From assembly GCA_000995965.1 (NCBI GenBank), contig LBYD01000001.1, forward strand, positions 12,923 through 76,922: a stretch of DNA of 64,000 nucleotides. Direction: 5' to 3'. Position 1 is the first letter of the stretch. Every line of letters begins with the position of its first letter. This stretch comes from Candidatus Moranbacteria bacterium GW2011_GWC2_40_12. GTDB lineage: Bacteria > Patescibacteriota > Minisyncoccia > Moranbacterales > UBA11712. A program made the translations under genes and the position numbers. Of the stretch, positions 3,098 to 40,678 are shown in pieces. The notes beneath the pieces were generated by a model. The model saw nothing but the letters and a program-made list of their open reading frames with translations, made no database searches and was not told the origin of the DNA.

Positions 3098-4051
3098 ATG
3101 CAACGAAAGAAAATCGGTGTAGCCCTCGGCGGAGGAACAATGAGAGGGATGACCCACATCGGCGTTTTGGAGGTATTTGAGGAAAACAATCTCCCGATTC
3201 ATTTTCTTGTCGGCTGTTCAAGCGGGGCGATTGTCGCGGCCGCCTATGCATGCGGAAAATTGAAGGAACTCAAAGAAACGGCACTTCCTCTCAAAAACAA
3301 AGACCGCCGCAAAATGCTTGATTTGAGCTTTTCCGGCGGTGGCTTGATAAAAGGGGAACAATTGAGGTCCCTTTTTGATTTCTTGACCGATGGGAAAAAA
3401 TTTGAAGATATCAAAGGCTTGAAATTGGCTTTTGTGGGAACAGATGCCTTGACAGGAAACGAAGTCGTGATTGATTCCGGCAGCATTGCTGAAGCCCTTG
3501 AGATCACGACGGCTCTTCCTGGGCTTGCTCCGCTCAAGAGGCACCACGGGAGGCTGGTCTTTGATGGCGGGACAGCCATGCTTGTTCCAGCCAAAATTGC
3601 CTACAATTTTGGGGCGGAAGCTGTGATTGGGGTTGATGTGAGCGTAGGCAGAAGCGTTATCACTAGAACGGTAGGAGATTTCAGAAAAATGATGAGAAAA
3701 AGCACTTTGAGGCGGGTTTTGAATCCGGTTTTCAAAATGGGAGACAAGGCGTTGAATTCCAGCGAAGAAAAATTTTTCGGGAAAGTGCGGAATCTCATGA
3801 AAAAATTGAAACTGCTTGATGATTATGAAAAACATAAGTTCAATTTTTTCGAGGCTTATCTCATCGGTCTTCGAGCCATTAGCGCTGATTATAAAAAAGG
3901 CCTTTTCCTGGATGGCGACTGCGATATCGCGATTCGTCCGGACGTACTTCATTTCAAGCGCTCGGATATTTCCCAGACAAAAGAAATGATCGAAGAAGGA
4001 AGAAAGGCGGCAGAAAATATATTGGGAGAGATAAAAAAATTACTTTTGTAA
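3098..4051 (+). CDS. patatin-like phospholipase
   Basis: GGGTMRG oxyanion motif, GCSSG (GxSxG nucleophile) and a DGG catalytic Asp motif. Confidence 0.75.
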   Translation: MQRKKIGVALGGGTMRGMTHIGVLEVFEENNLPIHFLVGCSSGAIVAAAYACGKLKELKETALPLKNKDRRKMLDLSFSGGGLIKGEQLRSLFDFLTDGKKFEDIKGLKLAFVGTDALTGNEVVIDSGSIAEALEITTALPGLAPLKRHHGRLVFDGGTAMLVPAKIAYNFGAEAVIGVDVSVGRSVITRTVGDFRKMMRKSTLRRVLNPVFKMGDKALNSSEEKFFGKVRNLMKKLKLLDDYEKHKFNFFEAYLIGLRAISADYKKGLFLDGDCDIAIRPDVLHFKRSDISQTKEMIEEGRKAAENILGEIKKLLL

Positions 4052-5510: not shown

Positions 5511-5650
5511 AATTAGTTGGTGGAAATTAGAAATTTGTAATGGATAATTGAAATTGGGAATTGGTCCATTTTCTATTTTCCAGTTTCTATTACTATTTTC
5601 AATTTACCAAGAATCATTTTCTATTGAAATCTGAAAAATTAATACCAGAT
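5511..5650. repeat. Family B palindromic intergenic element
   Basis: gaaattagttggtggaaattagaaatttgtaatggataattgaaattgggaattgg ... ccagtttctattactattttcaatttacc, imperfect inverted arms. Confidence 0.55.
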
Positions 5651-6610
5651 ATGAACATTCAGGAGAACATCCCTTTGGCTCAATATACAACCCTGAAAGT
5701 CGGCGGGGCGGCGAGGTTTTTTTGTGAAGCAAAAAATGAAGAGGAAATTTCGGGAGCGGTGAAATTTGCCGAAGAAAAAAAACTGCCGGTTTTTGTGCTG
5801 GGCGGCGGAAGCAATATTTTGGTGAGCGACAAAGGGTTTGACGGAGTCGTTATACGACTCCGAAATTCGCAATTAGTAATTCGCAATTTGGATATTATTT
5901 GTCACGGTGGCTGCCAATTGAGTAAAGCCGTCAGTGAAAGCGTAAAAGCCGGCCTCACCGGCCTCGAGTGGGCGGCGGGGATTCCGGGAATGGTTGGGGG
6001 CGCGGTTTGGGGGAATGCGGGGGCGCCTTGGGGCTCGATGGCGGACTGTGTGGAATCTGTAAAAGTTTTGGATAAAAAAGATTTACGATTTAAGATTTAC
6101 GATTTAAAAAAATGCGATTTTGAATACAGAAACAGTATCTTTAAGCGAAATTCGAATTTGGTAATTTTATCTGTTAGCTTAAAGCTGAAAAAAGGCAAAA
6201 AAGAAGAAAGCGAAAAAAGAGTGAAAGAAATTTTGGCTCAAAGGAAAGAAAAGCAGCCCATGGATTTTCCTAGTTCGGGAAGCTTTTTTGCCAATCCCAC
6301 GATAAAAGATCAGAAAGTGATTAGTGAATTTGAAAGAGAAACGAATACGAAAGTAAAAGATAATAAAAATTTATACCAGAATTCCGGTTCGGAAGTAAAA
6401 ATACCCGCGGCTTATCTGATTGAAGAAGCCGGACTCAAGGGTAAAAAAATAGGCGGGGCGCAGGTGAGCGAAAAGCACGCAAATTTTCTGGTGAACGCGG
6501 GAAACGCGAAGGCGGAAGATTTCATCATCCTTGCCGCGGTCATCAAAACGCGCGTCCGAAACAAATTCGGCATCCAGCTCAGAGAAGAAGTGCAGATGGT
6601 GGGATTTTGA
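5651..6610 (+). CDS. murB: UDP-N-acetylenolpyruvoylglucosamine reductase MurB
   Basis: NIPLAQYTTLKVGGAARFF...VLGGGSNIL FAD-binding N-terminus and a MurB C-terminus. The start was chosen at ATG 5651, in frame with track ORF 5561..6610. It contains family A-like in-frame insertions. Confidence 0.85.
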   Translation: MNIQENIPLAQYTTLKVGGAARFFCEAKNEEEISGAVKFAEEKKLPVFVLGGGSNILVSDKGFDGVVIRLRNSQLVIRNLDIICHGGCQLSKAVSESVKAGLTGLEWAAGIPGMVGGAVWGNAGAPWGSMADCVESVKVLDKKDLRFKIYDLKKCDFEYRNSIFKRNSNLVILSVSLKLKKGKKEESEKRVKEILAQRKEKQPMDFPSSGSFFANPTIKDQKVISEFERETNTKVKDNKNLYQNSGSEVKIPAAYLIEEAGLKGKKIGGAQVSEKHANFLVNAGNAKAEDFIILAAVIKTRVRNKFGIQLREEVQMVGF

Positions 6611-6612
6611 AG

Positions 6613-6708
6613 TCATTACGAATTACTAATTCGCTTTGCTCTACGAATATACAAATTACGAATATTTTTGAATTTGTATATTCGTATAAGATTCGTAGTT
6701 CGTAAAGG
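6613..6708. repeat. Family A palindromic element (TACGAAT-type)
   Basis: cattacgaattactaattcgc...ctacgaatatacaaattacgaat / attcgtataagattcgtagttcgtaa. Left arms TTACGAAT x n, right arms ATTCGTA x n. Confidence 0.75.
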
Positions 6709-31391: not shown

Positions 31392-32171
31392 ATGGCTAAA
31401 AGGCATGAAAATTATTGGGAATTGGTCTGGGCGCTGGCCCGGACTGATTTTAAATTGCGCTACCACGGCTCGCTTCTTGGCTATATATGGGCGCTTCTCA
31501 AGCCTCTCCTCACTTTTTTGATCCTCAACTTTGTTTTCTCGACGATTTTCAACCCGAAAAATTCCGGTATTCAGCATTTTTCACTCCAGCTCCTCACTTC
31601 CATTATGCTTTTCAATTTTTTTGCCGAAGGAACGCTGGCGGGGCTCAATTCGCTTCTTGGAAAAGCATCGCTTGTGACCAAGATTTATGTTCCGCGCTGG
31701 ACGATCGTGGCGGCTTCGACGATAAACGCAACTTTGATATTCGGGATGAACTTGATTATCATCGCCGCATTTTTTGTTTGGCAGGGATTTTGGCCGGGAA
31801 TTCCGGCAATCCTGATGTTTGTTTTTTTTATAGTTTTGACTTTTCTTCTCATCCTTTCTTTTGCATTCATTGCCGCGCCCCTTTATGTGAAGTTCCGCGA
31901 CTTGTCGCAAATCTGGGAAGTGGCGGTTCAGGCGCTTTTTTATGGGTCGCCGATTGTTTATCCGCTTCAGATTATTCCCCAAAAATACCATGCGATTCTC
32001 CTTGCCAATCCGATAGGCTTCATAATCCATTTCAATAAGCTGGCTTTGACGGAAAGCCATTATCCGACATGGGCGCAAATCAGCGTATTTACGACGCTGG
32101 TTTTTGTTTTGTTTATCGCGAGCCTTTTCGTTTTCAAAAAGCTTGAGCCAAAAGTGGCGGAGAATATATAA
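31392..32171 (+). CDS. ABC-2 type polysaccharide exporter permease (Wzm/TagG/KpsM-like)
   Basis: WELVWALARTDFKLRYHGSLLGYIWALLKPLL signature. 6 TM. 259 aa. Confidence 0.8.
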   Translation: MAKRHENYWELVWALARTDFKLRYHGSLLGYIWALLKPLLTFLILNFVFSTIFNPKNSGIQHFSLQLLTSIMLFNFFAEGTLAGLNSLLGKASLVTKIYVPRWTIVAASTINATLIFGMNLIIIAAFFVWQGFWPGIPAILMFVFFIVLTFLLILSFAFIAAPLYVKFRDLSQIWEVAVQALFYGSPIVYPLQIIPQKYHAILLANPIGFIIHFNKLALTESHYPTWAQISVFTTLVFVLFIASLFVFKKLEPKVAENI

Positions 32172-32300
32172 AATTGAAAATGTAAAAAAAATGAAAAATG
32201 ACAGTAAGAAGTTCAAAATAGTCAAATGTCGAAATCGATTTCGGGATTCAAAAAATTTTTCATTTTGAATTGCCATTTTTCATTTTGAGATTTCAATTTT
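32172..32300. repeat. Family B-like palindromic intergenic element (aaaattgaaaatg... / ...cattttgagatttcaatttt)
   Basis: Inverted repeat read from the sequence. Confidence 0.55.
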
Positions 32301-34219
32301 ACATCTTTCTTGTGTTAAAACACAAATACAAGCTCGCCGCTATTTTTATCTGCCTTTTATTTTTCTTTTTGGCGCTTTTCTCAAGCGCCGGTTTTTCGCG
32401 GAAAAACATGAAATACTCCGGAAACGGCATTCTGGCGGACGAGATTCCCCATATCGCCGGCGGCTACTACTATCTCAAAACAAATCGCTATTATATCAAT
32501 CCTGAACACCCTCCTCTCGTAAAAGACATCGCGGGTCTGGGAGAGCTTCTCATCAGTCCAAAACTTCCAAATATCACAAACCAAACGGAACTGCCGGCAG
32601 ATTTTCATCGTGCCGAATATCCATTCGTTGGCGCTCAGTTTCCAAAAGCTCTCGAGTGGCAGAACAATCAGGATCATTTCGGGACGATGTTTCTTTACCA
32701 GCCGCAAAATAATCCGGACAAAATCGCTTTTTTTGCGCGGCTGGCTGTTATTCTTGCCAATACGCTCTTATTATATTCATTATTTTATCTTCTCGCGGAA
32801 ATATGGTCCGAAAGAGCGGCGCTACTCGGGCTATTCTTCTTCTCTGTTTCCCAATTCAGCATCGCCCACGGATCGTTTGTTGTGATAGATTTCATGTCGG
32901 CGCTTCTCACGGGCATTGCGATCGCCGCCTTGGCGATTTATCTCAAAAGATACGCGGATGGCAGTCACGCCTCGAGATACTTCTTCATCACTTCGCTTTT
33001 TTTTGCGCTGGCGCTTCTTGCGAAATTTTCTTCCGTCGTTCTTCTTCCCGCCGCATTTTTCGGCGGGCTAATTCATGTAATCTTTACAAAGGTCCGGCTT
33101 TCCCGGGAGGATCGAACCATATTTGCGGCAAAATATATTTTTTCCTATGCGGCGATTGTGATTCTCGCGCTGTTTTTCATTTCCGCGTTCTATGTTTTTC
33201 ATACCTACAAGATGGAAAATGAAATTCTGGTCCAGAAGCTCCATGAAAACTATCCCGAAGAAAATCTGCCCGCCTTGGGGCATAGAATTCTCGAGCTGAT
33301 GGTCTATCTTAATCCTTTCACAAAGGGCCTGGCGGCGTATATAAACGGGGCTTTTATGGTTGTCAGCCGGATGGTTGTTTCCGCACAGAACACCTATTTT
33401 CTCGGCCATGTCTTCGGCAATGAAGGAGCCGGCTGGAAATATTGGCCCGTGCTATATTTCACAAAACTGTCGCTCGGGCTGCATTTTTTCACACTGCTGG
33501 TTATGTCACTGATTTTTTTCGGCCTGTTCAAGAAAAAAAGAAAAATAAAGCAAAAATTGGCGGGTTTTATTTCCAATCCGCTCTCAGTGTTACTGCTAGT
33601 CTTCATAATGGCCTACATGGCCGTCACACTCCACTCGACTTTTCAAATTGGTCTTCGGCACATAATGCCCGTCATTCTGGCCGCCTCGCTTTTGACTGGA
33701 AAAGGTGCCAATTCTTTTTGGGAGTTTTCATTTTTAAGGCCGAACCTTAAAAATTTGAGAAGGTTTGACCTTAGGTTGAAACATTTATTTTTCGCCGTCG
33801 CGGTGCTCATGCTTTTCTCCGTTTTTTGCTCATTTCCGTATTATCTTGAATACTACAATATCTTGGGCGGGGGAACGGACAAAGGGTATAAAGTTGCGAC
33901 TGATTCCAATTATGACTGGGGGGGATCGGATGTGCGGCGGCTCGCCAAGTGGACGCGGGATAACAACGTCAAGGAAATTTATACTCAAATGTTCGCGGAT
34001 GTGCCTTTGAAATACTATCTCGGCGACGGGCAGAAATATTTCAATTTGCAGGACGAGGGACATCTGCCGCCCTCCGGGTCGTATCTGGCTGTTTCAGTTT
34101 TTGAATATATGAACAATCTTTATTCCTGGTATATCCCGCCGGAGCGAAAATACACGATTCTCAAGGACAATCTTGTGGCGAGAGTTGGGAAGACAATATT
34201 CGTGTATCGCATCCCCTGA
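32270..34219 (+). CDS. GT-C fold glycosyltransferase, family 39/PMT-like (polyprenyl-phosphate-sugar dependent). Start uncertain (alternative GTG at 32312)
   Basis: DEIPHIAGGYYYL...NPEHPPLVKDIAG in the first loop (PMT/ArnT DE...EHPPL motif). About 12 TM. Confidence 0.7.
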   Translation: MPFFILRFQFYIFLVLKHKYKLAAIFICLLFFFLALFSSAGFSRKNMKYSGNGILADEIPHIAGGYYYLKTNRYYINPEHPPLVKDIAGLGELLISPKLPNITNQTELPADFHRAEYPFVGAQFPKALEWQNNQDHFGTMFLYQPQNNPDKIAFFARLAVILANTLLLYSLFYLLAEIWSERAALLGLFFFSVSQFSIAHGSFVVIDFMSALLTGIAIAALAIYLKRYADGSHASRYFFITSLFFALALLAKFSSVVLLPAAFFGGLIHVIFTKVRLSREDRTIFAAKYIFSYAAIVILALFFISAFYVFHTYKMENEILVQKLHENYPEENLPALGHRILELMVYLNPFTKGLAAYINGAFMVVSRMVVSAQNTYFLGHVFGNEGAGWKYWPVLYFTKLSLGLHFFTLLVMSLIFFGLFKKKRKIKQKLAGFISNPLSVLLLVFIMAYMAVTLHSTFQIGLRHIMPVILAASLLTGKGANSFWEFSFLRPNLKNLRRFDLRLKHLFFAVAVLMLFSVFCSFPYYLEYYNILGGGTDKGYKVATDSNYDWGGSDVRRLAKWTRDNNVKEIYTQMFADVPLKYYLGDGQKYFNLQDEGHLPPSGSYLAVSVFEYMNNLYSWYIPPERKYTILKDNLVARVGKTIFVYRIP

Positions 34220-34274
34220 GATATTTTTTTTGATTGGCCGTTTTTTTTATTTTCTATCTAGTAAGAGAAAAAAG

Positions 34275-37022
34275 ATGAAAAGTGGCAGAAATCTGATGAT
34301 AATCGCGCTGGCGCTGGCTGGCACGCTGTTTTTTGCGTTTCCGCGGAATATTTTCGCAAAGGTGGAACTTGGTTCAGGCGACCCGATTCCGCCCGTCTGG
34401 AGCAAATCTGACAGCCCTTATGTCATAAAGAACACTATCCAGGCAGCGAGTCCTGTCACGATTGAGCCAGGCGTCGTGGTCAAGTTCAAATACGCGGCTT
34501 CGGCAACTTTTCTTGATTCAATCACCGCCATCGGGACCGAAAAAGAAAGAATCGTGTTCACGGCCTGGACGGATGATGAGAACGGGGGAGACACAGACGG
34601 TGATCTCGGATCGCACCCTCCCCAAAAAGGATATTGGTACAGAATTCTGATTGGCTCGAGCGCCAAGGCTCAATTCGAAAATACCTCTTTCCTTTATGGA
34701 GGAGAGCATCCCTGGGGGACACTGTCGTTTGATTCAGCCTCGAAAAACAGCGTAAGCGTGAGAAATTCCGCTTTCAAGCACAACCAATATGCGGGAATTT
34801 ACATCAACTATAATCCTGATCAAATCATCGAAAACAACACTTTCTTGGATAATGGAGAGGGGATTGTGCTGAATGATTGCTATCACGGCTTGTCCGCAAC
34901 AATTTCCGGGAATTCTTTTGAGAAAAATGCCAATTTCGGCGTGAGGGTCGCTTATCCTTCCTATAACACGCTGGATGCGAGAAATAATTGGTGGGGCGAT
35001 CGGTCCGGTCCCTATCAATCAACAAAAAATCCCAGCGGGAAAGGAGATAAAATTTCAAACGGAGTCTTGTTTGATCCCTGGATTGGAAAAGGAGGATTTG
35101 TTCCAGTGGTTGTTGTTCCCGGTGTAATGGCGTCCTGGGAAAAAGACGGGGAATGGCAGATTGATCCGATTTTTCATACTTACGACAATTTGCTGGAAGA
35201 ATTCAAAAATGAAGGATATATCCCGGAAAAAGAACTTTTCACTTTTCCCTATGAATGGCGGGACAGCAACGTGAGCAATGCGGTGAAACTAAAAGATAAA
35301 ATTCAGGAAATAAAAAACCAAACCGGATTTCCAAAAGTTGATATTGTCGCCCATTCCATGGGCGGGCTTCTCGCCAGGCAGTATATTGAATCGGATGATT
35401 ATCAAGATGACGTGAGACAGTTGATCACGGTTGCAACTCCGCATTTAGGAGCGCCGAAAGTTTATGTGAAGTGGGAAGCCGGCGCGTTTTTTTCGGATAT
35501 TTTTGAGACGGTGGGAAAATATATCTTCGAGCAAGAAGCCAAAGAAAACGGATACGGCAGCGTATTTCACTATATTCGGGACCGGATTGCTTCCGTCAAG
35601 GAACTTTTGCCGGTTTATGATTATCTTTGGGACGACAACGGGACAGATTATGATTTGCGAGTGGGCTACCCGGAAAATTATCCAAGAAATGAATTTTTGG
35701 AAAATTTGAATAGCGCGGAAAAAGTGAAAAAGTTGGAAAATGTTGAGTTTACGAAGATAATAGGAAAACCGGAAGGCGCAAAAACAACAATCTCCGGTTA
35801 TAATGTAGTTGACGCTGATATAAGGGAGTTGTGGGAGCATGGATATCCGCATGGATTTGAAATTTCCAAATTAGGAGATCAGGGAATAAATAAAGATTAT
35901 GGAGACGAGACCGTGCCACTATATTCGGCGGAATCATCTAATATTCCAAATAACAAAACATTATATTTTGAATCCGAACATAACATTATTCCTACTGATG
36001 CCCAACGAGATATTCTTCAAATTCTCACCGGGAAAAAACCGGAAAATGAAGTGAAAAATTGGGTGATTGATGATATTCTTATCGGGCTGGTTTTTTCTCC
36101 GGTTGATATTCAAATAGTTTCGCCTAGCGGAAAAAGACTTGGAAAAAATTTCGAAACAGGCGGGGAATACGGCGAAATCGAAGGAGCCTACTATAGTGGT
36201 TTCAAAAATGACACCGAATTTTTCACCATTCCGAATCCTGAAGACGGCGAATATAAAATATTCGCGCAGGGGACGGGCGAAGGCGGCAGCTATAAAATCG
36301 AAGTGGCCGAAATTTCAGAAAATCCGGCTGATCCAGACAATGCCAAAGAATCTTCCGTCGTGATTGAGGATGAGGCTCAAGCGGGGAAAACACGGGAAGC
36401 CAAAGTGGAAGTGACCGAGGATCAGATAAGATACAATCCCGACAAGACGCCGCCGACGATCACGGTTTCCTCTCCGGAAAAAAAAGATTATACTAATGAT
36501 GAGATTCTGGCAATCGATTACGAAGTTCAGGATCCTGAATCAGGAGTGGCAAGCAATGTTTGGCAGGTTGAAAAAGACGGCCAAAATGTTGGATGGCAGA
36601 AAAATGCTGTTGATCTTTCGTTCGAGCATCTTGGGAACTATGTTTTGCGGATAAATGCCGCAGATAATGCCGGGAATTCGATCGAAAAGGAGGCGAATTT
36701 TCAGGTGGTGACGAGCCTTGAGGCAATTCGAAACAATCTCAACCATTATTTCAGCCTGGGGCTTATCAAAAAGAAAGTCGCCCACAAATATTTCGATGCC
36801 AAATTCAGAAATTTGGAAAAACTCTTGAGTCTTCTCAAAAAAGCAGAAAATTCAAATCTGAAACCCAAGCCGAAACAGGAAGTAGTTGCATCACTTGAGA
36901 AAAAAATCAGCAAGAGTATCAGCGTAATTATTCGTCAGATCAACCGAAAAACTCCCCAATGGATTGACCCGAAAGCGGCAAATTTTCTCATTGAAGATCT
37001 CAACTATATTAGAAATAATTAA
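34275..37022 (+). CDS. secreted multidomain protein: parallel beta-helix repeats + alpha/beta-hydrolase lipase domain (LCAT/PGAP1-like, AHSMGG) + C-terminal Ig-like/pre-peptidase-like domains
   Basis: Signal peptide MKSGRNLMIIALALAGTLFFAFP. PbH1-type repeats (NSAFKHNQYAGIYI, NNTFLDNGEGIVL, GNSFEKNANFGVRV). DIVAHSMGGLLARQYIE nucleophile elbow. Confidence 0.65.
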   Translation: MKSGRNLMIIALALAGTLFFAFPRNIFAKVELGSGDPIPPVWSKSDSPYVIKNTIQAASPVTIEPGVVVKFKYAASATFLDSITAIGTEKERIVFTAWTDDENGGDTDGDLGSHPPQKGYWYRILIGSSAKAQFENTSFLYGGEHPWGTLSFDSASKNSVSVRNSAFKHNQYAGIYINYNPDQIIENNTFLDNGEGIVLNDCYHGLSATISGNSFEKNANFGVRVAYPSYNTLDARNNWWGDRSGPYQSTKNPSGKGDKISNGVLFDPWIGKGGFVPVVVVPGVMASWEKDGEWQIDPIFHTYDNLLEEFKNEGYIPEKELFTFPYEWRDSNVSNAVKLKDKIQEIKNQTGFPKVDIVAHSMGGLLARQYIESDDYQDDVRQLITVATPHLGAPKVYVKWEAGAFFSDIFETVGKYIFEQEAKENGYGSVFHYIRDRIASVKELLPVYDYLWDDNGTDYDLRVGYPENYPRNEFLENLNSAEKVKKLENVEFTKIIGKPEGAKTTISGYNVVDADIRELWEHGYPHGFEISKLGDQGINKDYGDETVPLYSAESSNIPNNKTLYFESEHNIIPTDAQRDILQILTGKKPENEVKNWVIDDILIGLVFSPVDIQIVSPSGKRLGKNFETGGEYGEIEGAYYSGFKNDTEFFTIPNPEDGEYKIFAQGTGEGGSYKIEVAEISENPADPDNAKESSVVIEDEAQAGKTREAKVEVTEDQIRYNPDKTPPTITVSSPEKKDYTNDEILAIDYEVQDPESGVASNVWQVEKDGQNVGWQKNAVDLSFEHLGNYVLRINAADNAGNSIEKEANFQVVTSLEAIRNNLNHYFSLGLIKKKVAHKYFDAKFRNLEKLLSLLKKAENSNLKPKPKQEVVASLEKKISKSISVIIRQINRKTPQWIDPKAANFLIEDLNYIRNN

Positions 37023-37059
37023 AAATTAATTGAAATAATTTCCGCGAAACGAAAATTAC

Positions 37060-37371
37060 GTGGGAGTTATAAGAAAAATTATGTTACTTCTGGGAAGTGC
37101 TCGAGCAGATATTTGGATTACGCTTTTTTTGCTGAGTATATCTTTTATTGTTTCGCTTATATTTTTTGCTGTGGCGAGAAGAAAGATTCTGGCTCTGATC
37201 GTATTTTCTGTTTTGGCAAATATATCTGTGTTGTTAAATGCAGGATCAGGGATGTTTGATTTTTACAGTATCGGGTGGCTGAAAACCTTCTCCGTCTTAA
37301 TCTGGCCGCTTCTCAACATTTTTTTCATAATTCGCTATGTGCAGACGAAGCCTGCCAAGCCGAAGAAATAG
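37060..37371 (+). CDS. small membrane protein (103 aa)
   Basis: Two or three hydrophobic helices. Confidence 0.35.
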   Translation: MGVIRKIMLLLGSARADIWITLFLLSISFIVSLIFFAVARRKILALIVFSVLANISVLLNAGSGMFDFYSIGWLKTFSVLIWPLLNIFFIIRYVQTKPAKPKK

Positions 37372-37447
37372 CGCCAAAATAAAGCAAAAATAGTCAGTGA
37401 AAAATCCTCGACAAAACGGGGATTTTTTGGTATCCTTTTATTGTTGC

Positions 37448-37546
37448 TATGGAAAAAGAAATTGCTATCAAAGCCGAAAATATAAGCAAAACCTTCCGCA
37501 TTCCCAACGAGAAAATCCCAACTCTGCGGGGGGCTTTGCGCAGTTG
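37448..37546 (+). pseudogene. duplicated 5' fragment of the wzt-like ABC ATPase gene (32 codons, then stop)
   Basis: About 95 nt are near-identical to 38843..38940 (atggaaaaagaaattgctatcaaagccgaaaatataagcaaaaccttccgcattccc...). It translates to MEKEIAIKAENISKTFRIPNEKIPTLRGALRS*. Confidence 0.7.
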
Positions 37547-37689
37547 ATTATAAATACTAAGTTTATGATTAGTTGGGTAATCATAAAGTGAAATAATTGA
37601 AAAAGAGCTTATTTTCAGGGAAATTTTGGCTTAATTATCGAAGTTGATGAGCTATAATAAAAGCAAAAACCTTTGAAATCAAAAGCGAA

Positions 37690-38156
37690 TTGGAACCGCG
37701 ATACAACAAAAGGATATTGAAAAGATACAAAAACCGCGAAAAGTTATTCAAGGAACGGACGGAAATTATCCGAAAAAGGCGCTATGATTTGCCACAGCCC
37801 TTGAATTATGTCGATTGGCGGAGCCCCTACGACAATATTTTTGTGTGGCAAGAGAAAGGAAAAAATATTTTCGAAAAGGCGGAAGCGGATCGTCTGGAGC
37901 GCGGCAAACCAATTCGGAATTCATTTTCGGTTTCGTACTTATAAACAAAACAAATCCGGTCAAATCGTATCTGTTTTTGTACGCGGACGATAATCAACTC
38001 TATTTTATCAAAGAATTTCCATCTCTGGCTGTTCCGTGCTATGAAATCGGATCAAACTATTTTCAGCCAAATCGCGAGGGAGAGAAGATTTTTTCGAGAA
38101 CAAGATTGATGGAATGGGAAAGCTTCTATAAGGCGGAAAAGATAATCATAAAGTGA
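37690..38156 (+). pseudogene. degraded paralog (multiple frameshifts) of the 38242..38676 gene
   Basis: Pieces in three frames (KRRYDLPQPLNYVDW..., LYADDNQLYFIKEF...) align to KRRPYVRSAYFRKEKIF... and LTADNELFCIQIKE of the intact downstream copy. Confidence 0.45.
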
Positions 38157-38241
38157 AAAGCACAAACTCTTTGATCTTCGACAAGTCAGGCCTTTTTTGG
38201 TAAACTTGATTTATCGATTATGAGATTTCATAAAAAATATA

Positions 38242-38676
38242 ATGAGAGTTTATCAAACAAAAGCGAAAAAGTTGTCCGGAACTGATTTTCAGGAAGTCAA
38301 CCGCAAGGCCCACGAAATTTATACTCAAATAAAAAAGAAATCAAAAAGACGCCCCTACGTCCGTTCAGCGTATTTTAGGAAAGAGAAAATATTTCTGGAA
38401 TTGTTTTGGAAACATTTATACGGAAAAGAAAATTGGCGGGACAGAATGAGGCGACTGAAATACTTTGCTTGCGTGATTGAATTGATCCAAAAATCCCGCT
38501 TTGCGCCGACTTCCAAGAAAAATCCAAACAAATCAAAAGAAATGCTTCATCGGTTTTATGGACTCACGGCAGATAATGAATTGTTCTGCATCCAAATCAA
38601 GGAAGATGTCAAAAACAAGCAAAAATTTTTGATTTCCGTTTTCCCAACCGACGGACCATGGGATTGGGATATGTGA
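38242..38676 (+). CDS. hypothetical basic protein (144 aa), intact copy of a tandem pair
   Basis: ORF with a paralogous degraded copy immediately upstream. Confidence 0.45.
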   Translation: MRVYQTKAKKLSGTDFQEVNRKAHEIYTQIKKKSKRRPYVRSAYFRKEKIFLELFWKHLYGKENWRDRMRRLKYFACVIELIQKSRFAPTSKKNPNKSKEMLHRFYGLTADNELFCIQIKEDVKNKQKFLISVFPTDGPWDWDM

Positions 38677-38842
38677 ACAAAAAAGGACCTTCCGCTATGC
38701 GTGGTGTATAAACCACAGGCCGAAGGACCTTTCTATGAATAATACTACCAAACTAGAAAAATTCTGTCAATATGCAATTTATTGCTTTATACAAGCTAAA
38801 ATAGACAATCAGGATAATTTTTGCTAGGCTGAAATATAGGTT

Positions 38843-40066
38843 ATGGAAAAAGAAATTGCTATCAAAGCCGAAAATATAAGCAAAACCTTCCGCATTCCCC
38901 ACGAGAAAATCTCGACGCTTAGGGGAGCTTTTGTGAACGCATTCAGCCGGAACAAAGGATATGAGGAATTCAAGGCGCTGGACGGCGTGAGCTTCGAGGT
39001 GAAAAAAGGGGAGTTTTTCGGGATCATTGGGCGAAACGGCAGCGGGAAATCAACACTTCTCAAGATCCTCGCCGGGATATACCAACCGGACAAGGGGAAG
39101 GTGAAAATCAACGGTCTCATTTCACCATTTCTTGAGCTCGGCATCGGCTTCAATCCGGAGCTTTCGGGACGAGACAATATATATCTCAATTCCGCTGTTT
39201 TGGGGCTCACGCACAAGCAGATCGATGAAAAATTTCAAGATATTGTGGATTTTTCGGAGCTCGGGCGCTTTATTGACCAAAAGGTGAAAAATTATTCTTC
39301 GGGAATGTATGTCCGTCTCGCATTTTCAGTGGCCATCCATGCGAACCGGGATATTCTGCTGATGGATGAAGTTCTCGCAGTGGGGGACACAAATTTTCAG
39401 AGTAAGTGCTTGACAGAGTTTAACAAATACAAAGACGCGGGGAAGACCGTGGTTTTGGTGACGCATGATATCGCGACAGTCCAAAGATATTGTGACCGGG
39501 CGATGCTTCTTCGCAACGGAAAGATTGAAATGATCGGAGATCCGCAAGAAGTCGGCAGTAAATATGTCTATCAAAATATGAGTGACGAGGAAAGAAGAAT
39601 GGCTGAAGAAAAAGGAAGAATAAAAAGGGAGATTTTGCGAAAGAAGGGAGAGGAAAAAAGCAAGGTAGTGGAAATAGCAAGAGTAGAATTCTTGGACAGA
39701 TACGGAAAAGAAAAAAATGTTTTTGAAACCGGGGAGAATATGTCAGTAAGAGTTTATTTCAAAAAAAATAAAAAAGTTTCTAAGCTCAATTTTGGAGTTG
39801 CGATTTATAATCAGGAAAATAATTATATCTTTGGCATTAATACGGTTATCGACAAAGTTAACACGCAAAAATACATAGAAAATAGTTACTTTCAAGTCGA
39901 TTATGAAAATATTCCGCTAAAAACGAACACTTATTTCATCAAGACCGGAATTTCTGGGGAAAATGGTGCGGTTGCTTATGATTTTCTTGACAGGTCAAAG
40001 ATTTTTAAAGTAATTTCAAAAAATCATAATGAAGGTTTAGTTGATTTATGTTACAGATGGAATTAA
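38843..40066 (+). CDS. ABC transporter ATP-binding protein, Wzt/TagH-like, with a C-terminal glycan-binding extension
   Basis: Walker A GRNGSGKST, signature YSSGMYVRLAF, Walker B LLMDEVLAVGD. About 150 extra C-terminal residues, as in Wzt O-antigen exporters. Confidence 0.85.
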   Translation: MEKEIAIKAENISKTFRIPHEKISTLRGAFVNAFSRNKGYEEFKALDGVSFEVKKGEFFGIIGRNGSGKSTLLKILAGIYQPDKGKVKINGLISPFLELGIGFNPELSGRDNIYLNSAVLGLTHKQIDEKFQDIVDFSELGRFIDQKVKNYSSGMYVRLAFSVAIHANRDILLMDEVLAVGDTNFQSKCLTEFNKYKDAGKTVVLVTHDIATVQRYCDRAMLLRNGKIEMIGDPQEVGSKYVYQNMSDEERRMAEEKGRIKREILRKKGEEKSKVVEIARVEFLDRYGKEKNVFETGENMSVRVYFKKNKKVSKLNFGVAIYNQENNYIFGINTVIDKVNTQKYIENSYFQVDYENIPLKTNTYFIKTGISGENGAVAYDFLDRSKIFKVISKNHNEGLVDLCYRWN

Positions 40067-40073
40067 TTATTAT

Positions 40074-40655
40074 ATGAAAAATAAGAAAATAATAAAAGGA
40101 CGGGTTGTCTGGCTGACTGGTTTGTCTTGCAGTGGCAAGACGACTATCTCGAAAGAACTGATAAAATATTTCAAGAAAAATAAATTGCCTGTCCAGTGGC
40201 TGGACGGCGATGTTGTGCGAAAAACCATAAACAAAGATTTGGGGTTTTCAAAAAAAGACCGGGATGAAAATATAGAGCGCGTGACACATATTGCGCAGAT
40301 GCTGGCTGAAAATGGCGTGAATGTAGTTGCGGCCTTTGTTTCACCGTATCGTAAAATGCGAAATTTCGCGAGAAAAATTTGTCCCAATTTCATCGAGGTT
40401 TATGTCGAATGCGACATCAAAGAATGTATCAGAAGGGACACAAAAGGCTTGTATAAAAAAGCACTGGCGGGAAAAATAAGGGATTTTACCGGGATTCAGG
40501 ATCCGTACGAACTGCCAAAAAAACCGGAAATTATCATTAATACGGAAGGAAAAAAAGCGGGAGAAAGCGCCCGAGAGCTGATTAGTCGGCTTGAAAGATT
40601 GGCCAGGTGGCCTAAATATACCGATCATATAAACGACAATTCGACGAGATCCTAA
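40074..40655 (+). CDS. cysC: adenylyl-sulfate (APS) kinase
   Basis: GLSCSGKTTIS P-loop, LDGDVVR and AFVSPY motifs. Confidence 0.85.
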   Translation: MKNKKIIKGRVVWLTGLSCSGKTTISKELIKYFKKNKLPVQWLDGDVVRKTINKDLGFSKKDRDENIERVTHIAQMLAENGVNVVAAFVSPYRKMRNFARKICPNFIEVYVECDIKECIRRDTKGLYKKALAGKIRDFTGIQDPYELPKKPEIIINTEGKKAGESARELISRLERLARWPKYTDHINDNSTRS

Positions 40656-40678
40656 GCACGCTAAAATGACCTCGGATA

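Follow-up and report, generated by a model that had tools for sequence, protein, structure and literature searches.

A conserved, predicted small-RNA gene convergent with the gene of a basic, predicted BECR-like protein in a composite cassette stack before wzt of a Candidatus Moranbacteria genome

The region studied here lies immediately upstream of wzt, the gene of an ATP-binding cassette (ABC) transporter ATPase, in a stretch of 64,000 nucleotides (nt) of DNA (hereafter "the window") from contig LBYD01000001.1 of Candidatus Moranbacteria bacterium GW2011_GWC2_40_12. A segment of about 1.4 kb contains, in this order, a displaced copy of the wzt 5' end (wzt'), a leader that resembles the 3' end of a gene family termed here famB, the stub of an AAA_14 ATPase gene, a truncated famB gene, and a gene for a basic protein of 144 amino acids (p144) accompanied by a small-RNA gene, after which the functional wzt begins. 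The most valuable result appears to be twofold: an undescribed protein/small-RNA module found throughout the bacteria of the candidate phyla radiation (CPR), and an apparently integrase-free insertion hotspot marked by serial wzt 5' fragments. The features of the segment, with positions in the window, are the following:

37448-37537, plus strand: wzt', displaced copy of the wzt 5' end (self-alignment and tblastn)
37548-37595, plus strand: leader that aligns with the famB 3' end and holds copy 1 of a 16-mer (37578-37593) (alignment)
37596-37634, plus strand: stub of an AAA_14/DUF4143 ATPase gene, with ATT replacing ATG, 12 codons (IEKELIFREILA) and then a stop
37651-38156, plus strand: famB pseudogene, 5'-truncated and with a 1-nt deletion, whose last codons carry copy 2 of the 16-mer (38143-38158)
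38178-38206, plus strand: promoter-like site before p144, TCGACA-17-TAAACT with TG (consensus match only, unconserved at other p144 loci)
38242-38676, plus strand: p144, intact gene for a 144-aa basic protein, candidate RNase/toxin with a predicted BECR-like fold
38679-38736, minus strand: predicted hairpin RNA gene of ~55 nt, composed of a hairpin and a U6 tract; it converges with p144, whose stop codon is 3-5 nt from its end
38770-38742, minus strand: small-RNA promoter, TTGACA, 17 nt, TG-extended TAGTAT (scan, 10/12 plus TG)
38843-40066, plus strand: wzt, functional ABC-transporter ATPase gene and anchor of the hotspot (Pfam ABC_tran and Wzt_C)

The main feature of this cargo, which a first-pass annotation of the same DNA overlooked, is the conserved small-RNA gene convergent with p144. 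An alignment of p144 loci reveals that ~95 nt located 3' of the p144 stop codon are conserved better than the p144 gene itself, and that nothing is conserved upstream of p144 across the loci aligned. The same hairpin is present on the minus strand, at most ~25 nt after the p144 stop, in all 86 p144 copies (83 loci). On that strand it is preceded by a uniform promoter layout, i.e. TTGACA (or TTGATT), 16-17 nt, a TG-extended -10 element and then, after 6-9 nt, AAAAAGGCUUUCGGCCGUGGUUUAUAUACCACACUUAGCGGAAGGUCUUUUU; the layout scores 8/12 or better in 86 of 88 loci, and the -10 element ends 6-9 nt from the hairpin in 83 of the 88. Alignment with MAFFT followed by RNAalifold recovered the inner stem only, owing to 1-nt indels, and a hand-seeded covariance model (R1), built from 19 sequences, was used instead. 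R1 yields 89 minus-strand matches in 83 loci, 86 of them corresponding to one per p144 copy and three being extra, and a single match in the window (38681-38733), with 58.9 bits (E 4e-12) on the minus strand versus 25.6 bits on the plus strand. The hairpin has a fold z-score of -4.6 and folds on the plus strand too. In the model-fitted alignment 97.3% of the cells are paired, compensatory changes are seen in 11 of the 19 pairs, and G.U pairs, whose plus-strand counterparts would be C.A mismatches, make up ~10% of the cells; the observed covariation values were reached by none of 500 shuffles, and slid controls did not come close either. The mean pairwise identity of the RNA (81%) exceeds that of the third (41%) and second (77%) codon positions of p144, which argues that the RNA sequence itself, and not the fold alone, is under selection. 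A search of Rfam with positions 37300-38900 returned no match at the hairpin at E-values up to 10.

The linkage of the RNA with the protein is strict in one direction: no p144 copy lacks the RNA, and at least four RNA copies come without p144 (in L053, L065, L094 and L167; here and below, numbers of this kind denote the loci compared). The orphan RNA of L167 (74.7 bits) stands before a wzt relative, has no p144 next to it, and adjoins a wzt' remnant with the same GCGGGGGGCTTT variant as the left copy in the window. Second copies of the hairpin RNA in p144 loci were observed in tandem in L094 (3414-3465 and 3502-3553) and L065 (1757-1809 and 1947-1999), and upstream of the p144 gene in L053 (2832-2883).

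Within the RNA, two G residues face each other between stems P1 and P2 in 75 of 84 distinct sequences (positions 13 and 40 of the model; 38721 and 38693 in the window), and the apical loop UU(A/C)AUA(U/C/A) and a bulge on the 3' side are also well conserved. Judging by this conservation, the G.G mismatch, the apical loop and the 3' bulge are candidate protein-contact points. Covariation of the G.G mismatch was considered and rejected, as the mismatch is merely conserved, with A/A in only two sequences; likewise, we rejected pairing of the RNA loop with the p144 start region, for which the complementarity is too short and AU-rich.

The gene convergent with the RNA is, as the first-pass annotation described it, an intact gene for a basic protein (isoelectric point 10.0; 34 K+R versus 16 D+E). 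Its product has the same sequence as a hypothetical protein of Candidatus Moranbacteria bacterium GW2011_GWC1_45_18 and belongs to a family with 535 homologs at 90% clustering (288 clusters at 50%) and 206 relatives in species-representative genomes. Most relatives are solo proteins of ~135-145 aa, the remainder being mainly shorter pieces or N-terminally extended forms. All named source genomes of the clusters are those of CPR bacteria, and the 80 loci fetched represent Moran-, Uhr-, Magasanik-, Peregrini-/Peri-, Komeili-, Buchanan-, Kuenen-, Doudna-, Gracili-, Berkel- and Saccharibacteria, together with a few records that are otherwise labelled or unlabelled. Some genomes possess two or three copies of p144, and the contexts are variable and mutually unrelated (e.g. 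T4SS-like genes, i.e. resembling those of type IV secretion systems; a position between clpB and a Glycos_transf_4 gene; a repeat-flanked array near an integrase). We found no p144 in 50,697 phage records, 72,556 plasmids or IMG/VR. In two proteins the p144 domain forms the C-terminal domain of a STAND/NACHT NTPase (P0176, residues 548-679; P0210, residues 579-711), and one of these NTPases also carries an HNH nuclease domain at its N-terminus; fusion to STAND/NACHT NTPases is a typical context of conflict systems.

A confident AlphaFold2 (AF2) model of p144, with a predicted local distance difference test score (pLDDT) of 89.6, starts at the N-terminus with a long helix and a small hairpin, after which come three helices (53-61, 65-72 and 75-84) and a four-stranded sheet (90-93, 100-108, 114-122 and 127-135). 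Across 40 p144 sequences S132, in the last strand, is invariant, and H58, in helix 53-61, is nearly so. According to Iyer et al. (PMC5512222), the BECR RNase fold consists of an N-terminal helix together with four to five strands; a helical His and, in strand 4, a Ser or Thr are common, and the MuF-C and PBECR domains of polyvalent proteins are assigned to this fold. The architecture predicted for p144 in the AF2 model corresponds to that definition, and by the secondary-structure position of the two residues a BECR-type fold with a matching His/Ser pattern is plausible for this protein. Foldseek matches among viral structures, to phage polyvalent, PolyVal and MuF-C proteins, speak for such a fold; a Foldseek search of the PDB gave weak matches only, to HigB2, RelE and CdiA-CT.

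Searches around p144 genes in eight other loci revealed no flanking target duplication, the sole repeat being an unrelated one of ~230 nt in L006 (Magasanikbacteria). This repeat occurs there three times at 97-100% identity (3483-3716, 5550-5784 and 6476-6702), and each copy precedes a different small gene (a lipase, an acetyltransferase and a fragment of an MFS gene). In this locus the p144 homolog separates copy 1 from copy 2, with a tyrosine recombinase gene upstream on the opposite strand. From their arrangement, the L006 repeats look like another kind of cassette array.

The comparison set for wzt comprised 80 metagenomic loci with Wzt relatives that are 42-88% identical over their best segment; 56 of these loci have usable DNA upstream of wzt. 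In 18 of the 56, one or two copies of the locus's own wzt 5' end are present upstream of wzt, two such fragments each being found in L095 and L098. According to tblastn, most fragments start at residue 1-4, and the five that blastn traces to the start codon have their first position between -8 and +2; the 3' ends of the fragments are spread over +65 to +473. The cassettes between the fragments are all in one orientation, and their cargo differs from locus to locus:

L095: two AAA_14 ATPases (AAA_14+DUF4143) and an NYN gene
L098: a Polbeta-NTase+HEPN pair, an AAA_14 ATPase and a 23S_rRNA_IVP protein
L125, L139, L149 and L161: NYN
L132: a Schlafen/AlbA_2 ATPase
L129: a Fic gene at the equivalent position, where no N-terminal wzt fragment was detected

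Since 18 of 56 loci carry upstream 5' fragments with differing cargo, the wzt start looks like a clade-wide insertion hotspot. The NYN, HEPN, Fic and AAA_14 genes of these loci are the companions of the p144 module there. In more distant relatives wzm, the transporter's membrane-component gene, and wzt are separated by 5 to ~56 nt, without fragments.

Two further observations concern these fragments. In L110 (1541-2659) a glycosyltransferase-like open reading frame (ORF), judged from sequence to be of family GT2, begins in frame with a wzt 5' fragment of ~40 codons, and displaced wzt fragments thus apparently have been recruited as new N-termini. Besides, the NYN cassettes and the 23S_rRNA_IVP cassette of L098 are preceded by a conserved leader of ~100 nt:

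L167 449-545; L139 ~3300-3407; L161 ~470-571; L095 3255-3422; L098 ~3400-3549: conserved ~100-nt leader

In L167 it contains TTGACA followed by a hairpin (AAAACCACCCGC...GCGGGGTTTT) and a T-run, and it has no Rfam match in seven related loci; in gene calls this leader appears as a conserved peptide at the end of wzt' (...AKTTRYDPLGMAGF). By its layout, the leader may represent another small RNA that accompanies an RNase gene.

The wzt 5' end of the window recurs 1,394 nt upstream, with 58/58 identical positions (37448-37505 versus 38842-38899), followed by 25/32; the similarity is gone after 37537 and amounts overall to 91 nt at 91%. The duplication and its 32-codon reading frame (37449-37547), which matches residues 1-29 of wzt at 93% in tblastn, thus agree with the first-pass annotation. 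In the 47 nt located 5' of the repeat 24/47 positions agree, chiefly in promoter-like blocks. The 3' junction of wzt' (GGGGCTTT/RCRCAGTTGATTATAAAT) is also present in L113 and L095, and this joint, common to all three, indicates that the left junction is either old or travels with the cassette. What follows it differs considerably from the tandem gene pair with one decayed copy that had been proposed earlier, as the two genes are unrelated by family hidden Markov model (HMM) and by hhalign. The stretch 37690-38156, taken for a paralog of p144, has no tblastn match to it, the probability given by hhalign between the two families is 0.5%, and the p144 family HMM scores 3.1 bits on it (rank 19 of 2,720 six-frame fragments), i.e. 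noise. It belongs instead to famB: the pieces 37651-37941 and 37815-38153 join into one protein with homologs P0121-P0128, and the reconstructed sequence is 79% identical to P0121 across the full query. Nor is this copy riddled with frameshifts; apart from the missing 5' part, it has a single lesion, a 1-nt deletion in the A-run 37860-37865, where the nearest intact homolog (L014) reads GGTAAGAAATAT.

The frameshift site, 37858-37866 (GGA AAA AAT), fits the slippery pattern A_AAA_AAT, and a -1 slip would restore the frame of the family; because of the 5' truncation and the sequence of the intact homolog, a plain 1-nt deletion is likelier than programmed -1 frameshifting. The famB family is rare (eight proteins found), with GGSGxS as an invariant motif and SYLFxY and IGSNY as further blocks; no match to it was obtained in Pfam, PADLOC or PHROG, and its AF2 model (pLDDT 51) is too poor for a structure search. 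Elsewhere (L012, L013 and L014) famB adjoins AbiEii, RNase_T or NYN genes, and at no other locus examined was it seen beside p144.

The 16-mer TAATCATAAAGTGAAA has exactly two copies in the 64 kb (0 expected by chance), as reported before, although the second starts at 38143 and not at 38141. It is repeated because both copies are the last famB codons (...IIK and the stop), one of them in a remnant: the leader reads ...NTKFMISWVIIK and stop, and famB ...TRLMEWESFYKAEKIIIK and stop. The same leader precedes AAA_14 ATPase genes in L095 and L113, and 37544-37627 is 88% identical to positions 12-95 of L095 and 86% to positions 544-630 of L113, stretches that comprise the upstream region and first codons (MEKELILREIF) of ATPase genes with AAA_14 and DUF4143 domains. 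We therefore rejected the remnant "EKELIFREILA" as the N-terminus of famB, as it is the start of an AAA_14 ATPase gene. Taken together, 37.4-38.8 kb is, by its sequence, a composite of stacked, partly decayed cassettes. Of the cassette insertion at the wzt 5' end suggested by the first-pass annotation, the inserted cargo and the displaced fragment are borne out, with the native left flank in support, but a single integration event is not. For annotation in general, neither short pseudo-copies of the wzt 5' end nor frameshifted cargo should become gene calls.

On balance we lean towards the view that the segment is a cassette stack at a wzt hotspot and that its live cargo is an RNase toxin with an RNA-antitoxin-like module. 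Cassettes would accumulate immediately before the wzt start codon, a recurrent hotspot in the Moranbacteria-related clade, with incoming DNA entering by recombination anchored in conserved wzt sequence. This could occur by homology-facilitated illegitimate recombination of transformed DNA or, fitting equally well, via a circle of cargo and wzt' that is excised between direct repeats and re-integrated by a single crossover at any wzt start. By either route the newcomer would supply a working wzt 5' end, while the old one (wzt') would be pushed upstream; later events would then have overwritten the AAA_14 ATPase cassette, leaving the 12-codon stub, and brought in famB and the p144 module. As a basic protein of the predicted BECR type (similar to RelE, colicin D and PBECR), p144 would most likely cut RNA. 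The ~55-nt RNA, with its own promoter, would share a two-way terminator with the p144 mRNA and most likely restrain p144, by pairing with the complementary 3' hairpin of the p144 mRNA, by being bound by the protein, or both; the overlap of the two transcripts by itself accounts for the complementarity to that hairpin. Contact between protein and RNA, on the pattern of type III systems, is suggested by the soluble, RNase-like character of p144 and the conserved sequence of the RNA. The pair would thus serve addiction or defence, resembling a toxin with an RNA antitoxin and travelling as selfish or defensive cargo, and the one-way dependence described above (p144 never without the RNA, the RNA sometimes without p144) fits the prediction of a toxin and its antitoxin.

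Several points weigh against this explanation. The profile searches with p144, whose family the first-pass annotation had called unrecognised, gave no significant match in Pfam, NCBIfam, PHROGs, PADLOC or PDB sequences, including RelE, PBECR and other toxin families, and 40 family members searched against Pfam at E-values up to 10 gave nothing usable. The Foldseek matches to viral structures, namely polyvalent, PolyVal and MuF-C proteins (E 3e-4 to 1e-3, template modelling score ~0.5), are modest, and the output leaves the matched part of these large phage proteins unspecified. The pair fits neither type I systems, with their small membrane-peptide toxins, nor type III systems, with their upstream tandem-repeat antitoxins, and a purely cis-antisense regulator would not require such strong sequence conservation. 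As to the insertion, no empty site, variant arrangement or circular form is seen for the source species (24 contigs, identical layout), and a later gene-conversion tract must be added, because neither route alone yields the mosaic identity of 58/58 and then 25/32.

The main competing explanation, which we regard as unlikely, is that the hairpin acts chiefly as a bidirectional terminator and as the site where p144 binds its own mRNA, that p144 is a harmless RNA-binding regulator or chaperone, and that the minus-strand promoter only tunes expression by antisense transcription, with no toxin/antitoxin link. The hairpin indeed lies exactly where a p144 terminator is expected and folds on the plus strand too; p144 is very basic and matches no toxin family, and inactive BECR domains, possibly only RNA-binding, have been noted (PMC5512222). 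However, the minus strand is preferred both by the G.U pattern and by the scores of the covariance model, the separate promoter is conserved at a fixed distance in 86/88 loci, the RNA occurs without the protein but never the reverse, and p144 retains what looks like the His/Ser pattern typical of active BECR RNases. We consider it very improbable that a small autonomous mobile element, composed of p144 and the hairpin, inserted itself before wzt, with the protein acting on a DNA hairpin in the manner of the single-strand transposases of IS200/IS605 or REP/RAYT systems. Such an element would account for a ~140-aa gene always located beside a conserved imperfect palindrome, in variable contexts and in several copies in some genomes, but p144 has no HUH/Y1 (Y1_Tnp) transposase match, the hairpin is one-sided and single in the 64-kb window, nothing is conserved upstream of p144, other p144 loci lack target duplications, and the conserved promoter, U-tract and G.U asymmetry all indicate an RNA.

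As to the way in which the stack arose, a site-specific recombinase, encoded elsewhere in the genome or on the element, might integrate cassettes at an att site in the first wzt codons, an idea close to the targeted insertion suggested earlier, to which we assign a low probability. Where integrases target icd or tRNA genes, the element brings along a replacement for the gene end, and here the cargo-proximal repeat edge lies at or very near the start codon and all cassettes share one orientation. Against it, the six neighbouring proteins scanned (31.4-40.1 kb) contain no recombinase domain and the 1.4-kb insert no integrase-sized ORF, the fragment 3' ends range from +65 to +473 with heterogeneous cargo, and the left copy retains 32 nt of diverged wzt homology past the identical core; no recombination-site motif or hairpin shared between the cassettes was noticed, although no systematic search was made, and the recurring item is the wzt 5' fragment. 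We give hardly any credence to a local tandem duplication of one gene with subsequent decay of the upstream copy, the wzt 5' repeat being part of the same duplication. Two adjacent same-strand ORF regions of similar size, with an exact 16-nt repeat near both, do resemble one, yet profile comparisons refute it by assigning the genes to unrelated families, the 16-mer represents two famB 3' ends, and an ATPase stub intervenes between wzt' and the famB remnant. An assembly chimera or collapsed repeat, for which only the general risk of metagenome-assembled genomes speaks, is practically negligible: six further assemblies (L009-L011 and L175-L177; NCBI, ENA and JGI) contain the 1,446-nt segment without a single base difference, the same arrangement is found in 24 of 24 contigs read that encode exactly the same Wzt, and many related loci carry analogous fragments. 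The arrangement is thus not an assembly artefact.

Comparison of the favoured p144/RNA module with known systems reveals partial similarities. Type III systems (ToxIN and relatives) consist of an endoribonuclease restrained by a structured, sequence-conserved RNA that the protein binds. By analogy, a protein-bound RNA would explain the strong conservation of the hairpin here. The antitoxins of type III systems, however, are upstream same-strand tandem repeats processed by the toxin, whereas here a single downstream hairpin is located on the other strand with its own promoter, no direct repeat resembling it is present upstream of p144, and the toxin folds differ. In the par system of plasmid pAD1, convergent promoters share a terminator with a tiny antitoxin RNA, and complementary terminator loops start the RNA-RNA contact (PMC7472228). 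The layout predicted from sequence in 86/88 p144 loci resembles par (Fst/RNA II of Enterococcus pAD1) in its convergent promoters, shared hairpin and ~55-nt RNA. Unlike p144, a 144-aa basic, soluble, RNase-like protein, Fst is a 33-aa membrane peptide; the par RNAs also pair via direct repeats near the toxin start, while the CPR RNA is essentially the hairpin alone, and its sequence is far more conserved than antisense pairing alone requires. With the BECR RNases (RelE/HigB, colicin D/E5, CdiA-CT and PBECR/MuF-C) the modelled p144 shares helices followed by a four-stranded sheet, and its conserved helix His and last-strand Ser may correspond to their active-site pattern, but it shows no detectable sequence or profile similarity to them, has an additional N-terminal helix and hairpin of ~50 residues, would have an RNA as its partner in place of a protein antitoxin or immunity protein, and is found in CPR bacterial chromosomes only, not in phages or plasmids. 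From IS200/IS605 and REP/RAYT elements the module differs in lacking a Y1_Tnp match and in its one-sided hairpin, present in a single copy in 64 kb.

For the hotspot, the closest parallels are arrays of displaced gene fragments at Rhs, contact-dependent inhibition (CDI) and type VI secretion system loci, which have been attributed to homology-facilitated illegitimate recombination (PMC5361080). The wzt loci similarly exhibit serial orphan fragments of the anchor gene and differing retained cargo in one orientation, but the part displaced is the 5' end of a housekeeping ABC-ATPase gene instead of a 3' toxin tip, the fragments lie upstream, and the cargo is functionally unlinked to the anchor gene. 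Integrons and gene-end-targeting elements such as e14 in icd likewise place same-orientation cassettes at one fixed position downstream of a promoter, and in the latter, too, incoming DNA restores the interrupted gene end; unlike them, the wzt loci have no fixed crossover core but variable fragment ends, and no integrase, among the six neighbouring proteins scanned and within the insert, or attC-like site was noticed.

CPR bacteria have tiny genomes and almost all are uncultured; we know of very few characterised regulatory RNAs or toxin-antitoxin systems in them, and of few classical mobile elements. The RNA-protein pair described here appears to be new and is present in hundreds of CPR lineages, with neither part in Pfam or Rfam, and the wzt-anchored stack suggests that CPR bacteria could trade defence or addiction genes via homology in conserved genes, without a dedicated recombinase. 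A more far-reaching interpretation, which we put forward tentatively and consider possible rather than probable, is that p144 and the RNA represent an undescribed, CPR-specific and widespread protein/RNA conflict module, in which a BECR RNase is neutralised, guided or processed by a small RNA recognised by its sequence, combining the layout of type I with the logic of type III, and that the wzt start is a site of integrase-free cassette exchange where fragments of a conserved gene serve as recombination handles.

All genes around the segment are located on the plus strand, according to the ORF list and a Pfam scan. The neighbouring features on its left, and a site just before wzt, are:

31392-32171, plus strand: wzm (Pfam ABC2_membrane)
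32270-34219, plus strand: gene of a PMT_2-like membrane protein
34173-37022, plus strand: gene of a beta-helix/lipase protein (lcat949)
37060-37371, plus strand: orf103, gene of a 103-aa membrane protein, native left flank of the hotspot (ORF, with homologs in relatives)
37398-37437, plus strand: terminator-like hairpin overlapping a promoter-like site, TCGACA-17-TATCCT, native, 3' of orf103 (promoter/terminator scan)
38802-38830, plus strand: putative weak promoter-like site before the functional wzt, TAGACA-17-TAGGCT (read by eye, under the scan threshold)

Homologs of orf103 are located between an lcat949 homolog and wzt in L096, L098-L101, L112, L122, L131 and L139, and 37402-37437 is 82-94% identical to sequence located 26-43 nt 3' of orf103 in L096, L098, L099, L100, L101, L122 and L131, with L120 providing a further match; by these similarities the left flank of the segment is native. 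The putative site before wzt aligns loosely with 37408-37436. As the first-pass annotation noted, wzm and wzt are separated, but mainly by the three other genes in 32270-37371, and because lcat949 and orf103 also precede wzt in related loci, the separation is not due to the 1.4-kb segment. Directly 3' of wzt (40041-41749) we found APS kinase and ATP sulfurylase genes, followed by genes for a DUF4915 protein and a large methyltransferase/glycosyltransferase; given the position of the first two directly after wzt, the exported glycan may be sulfated.

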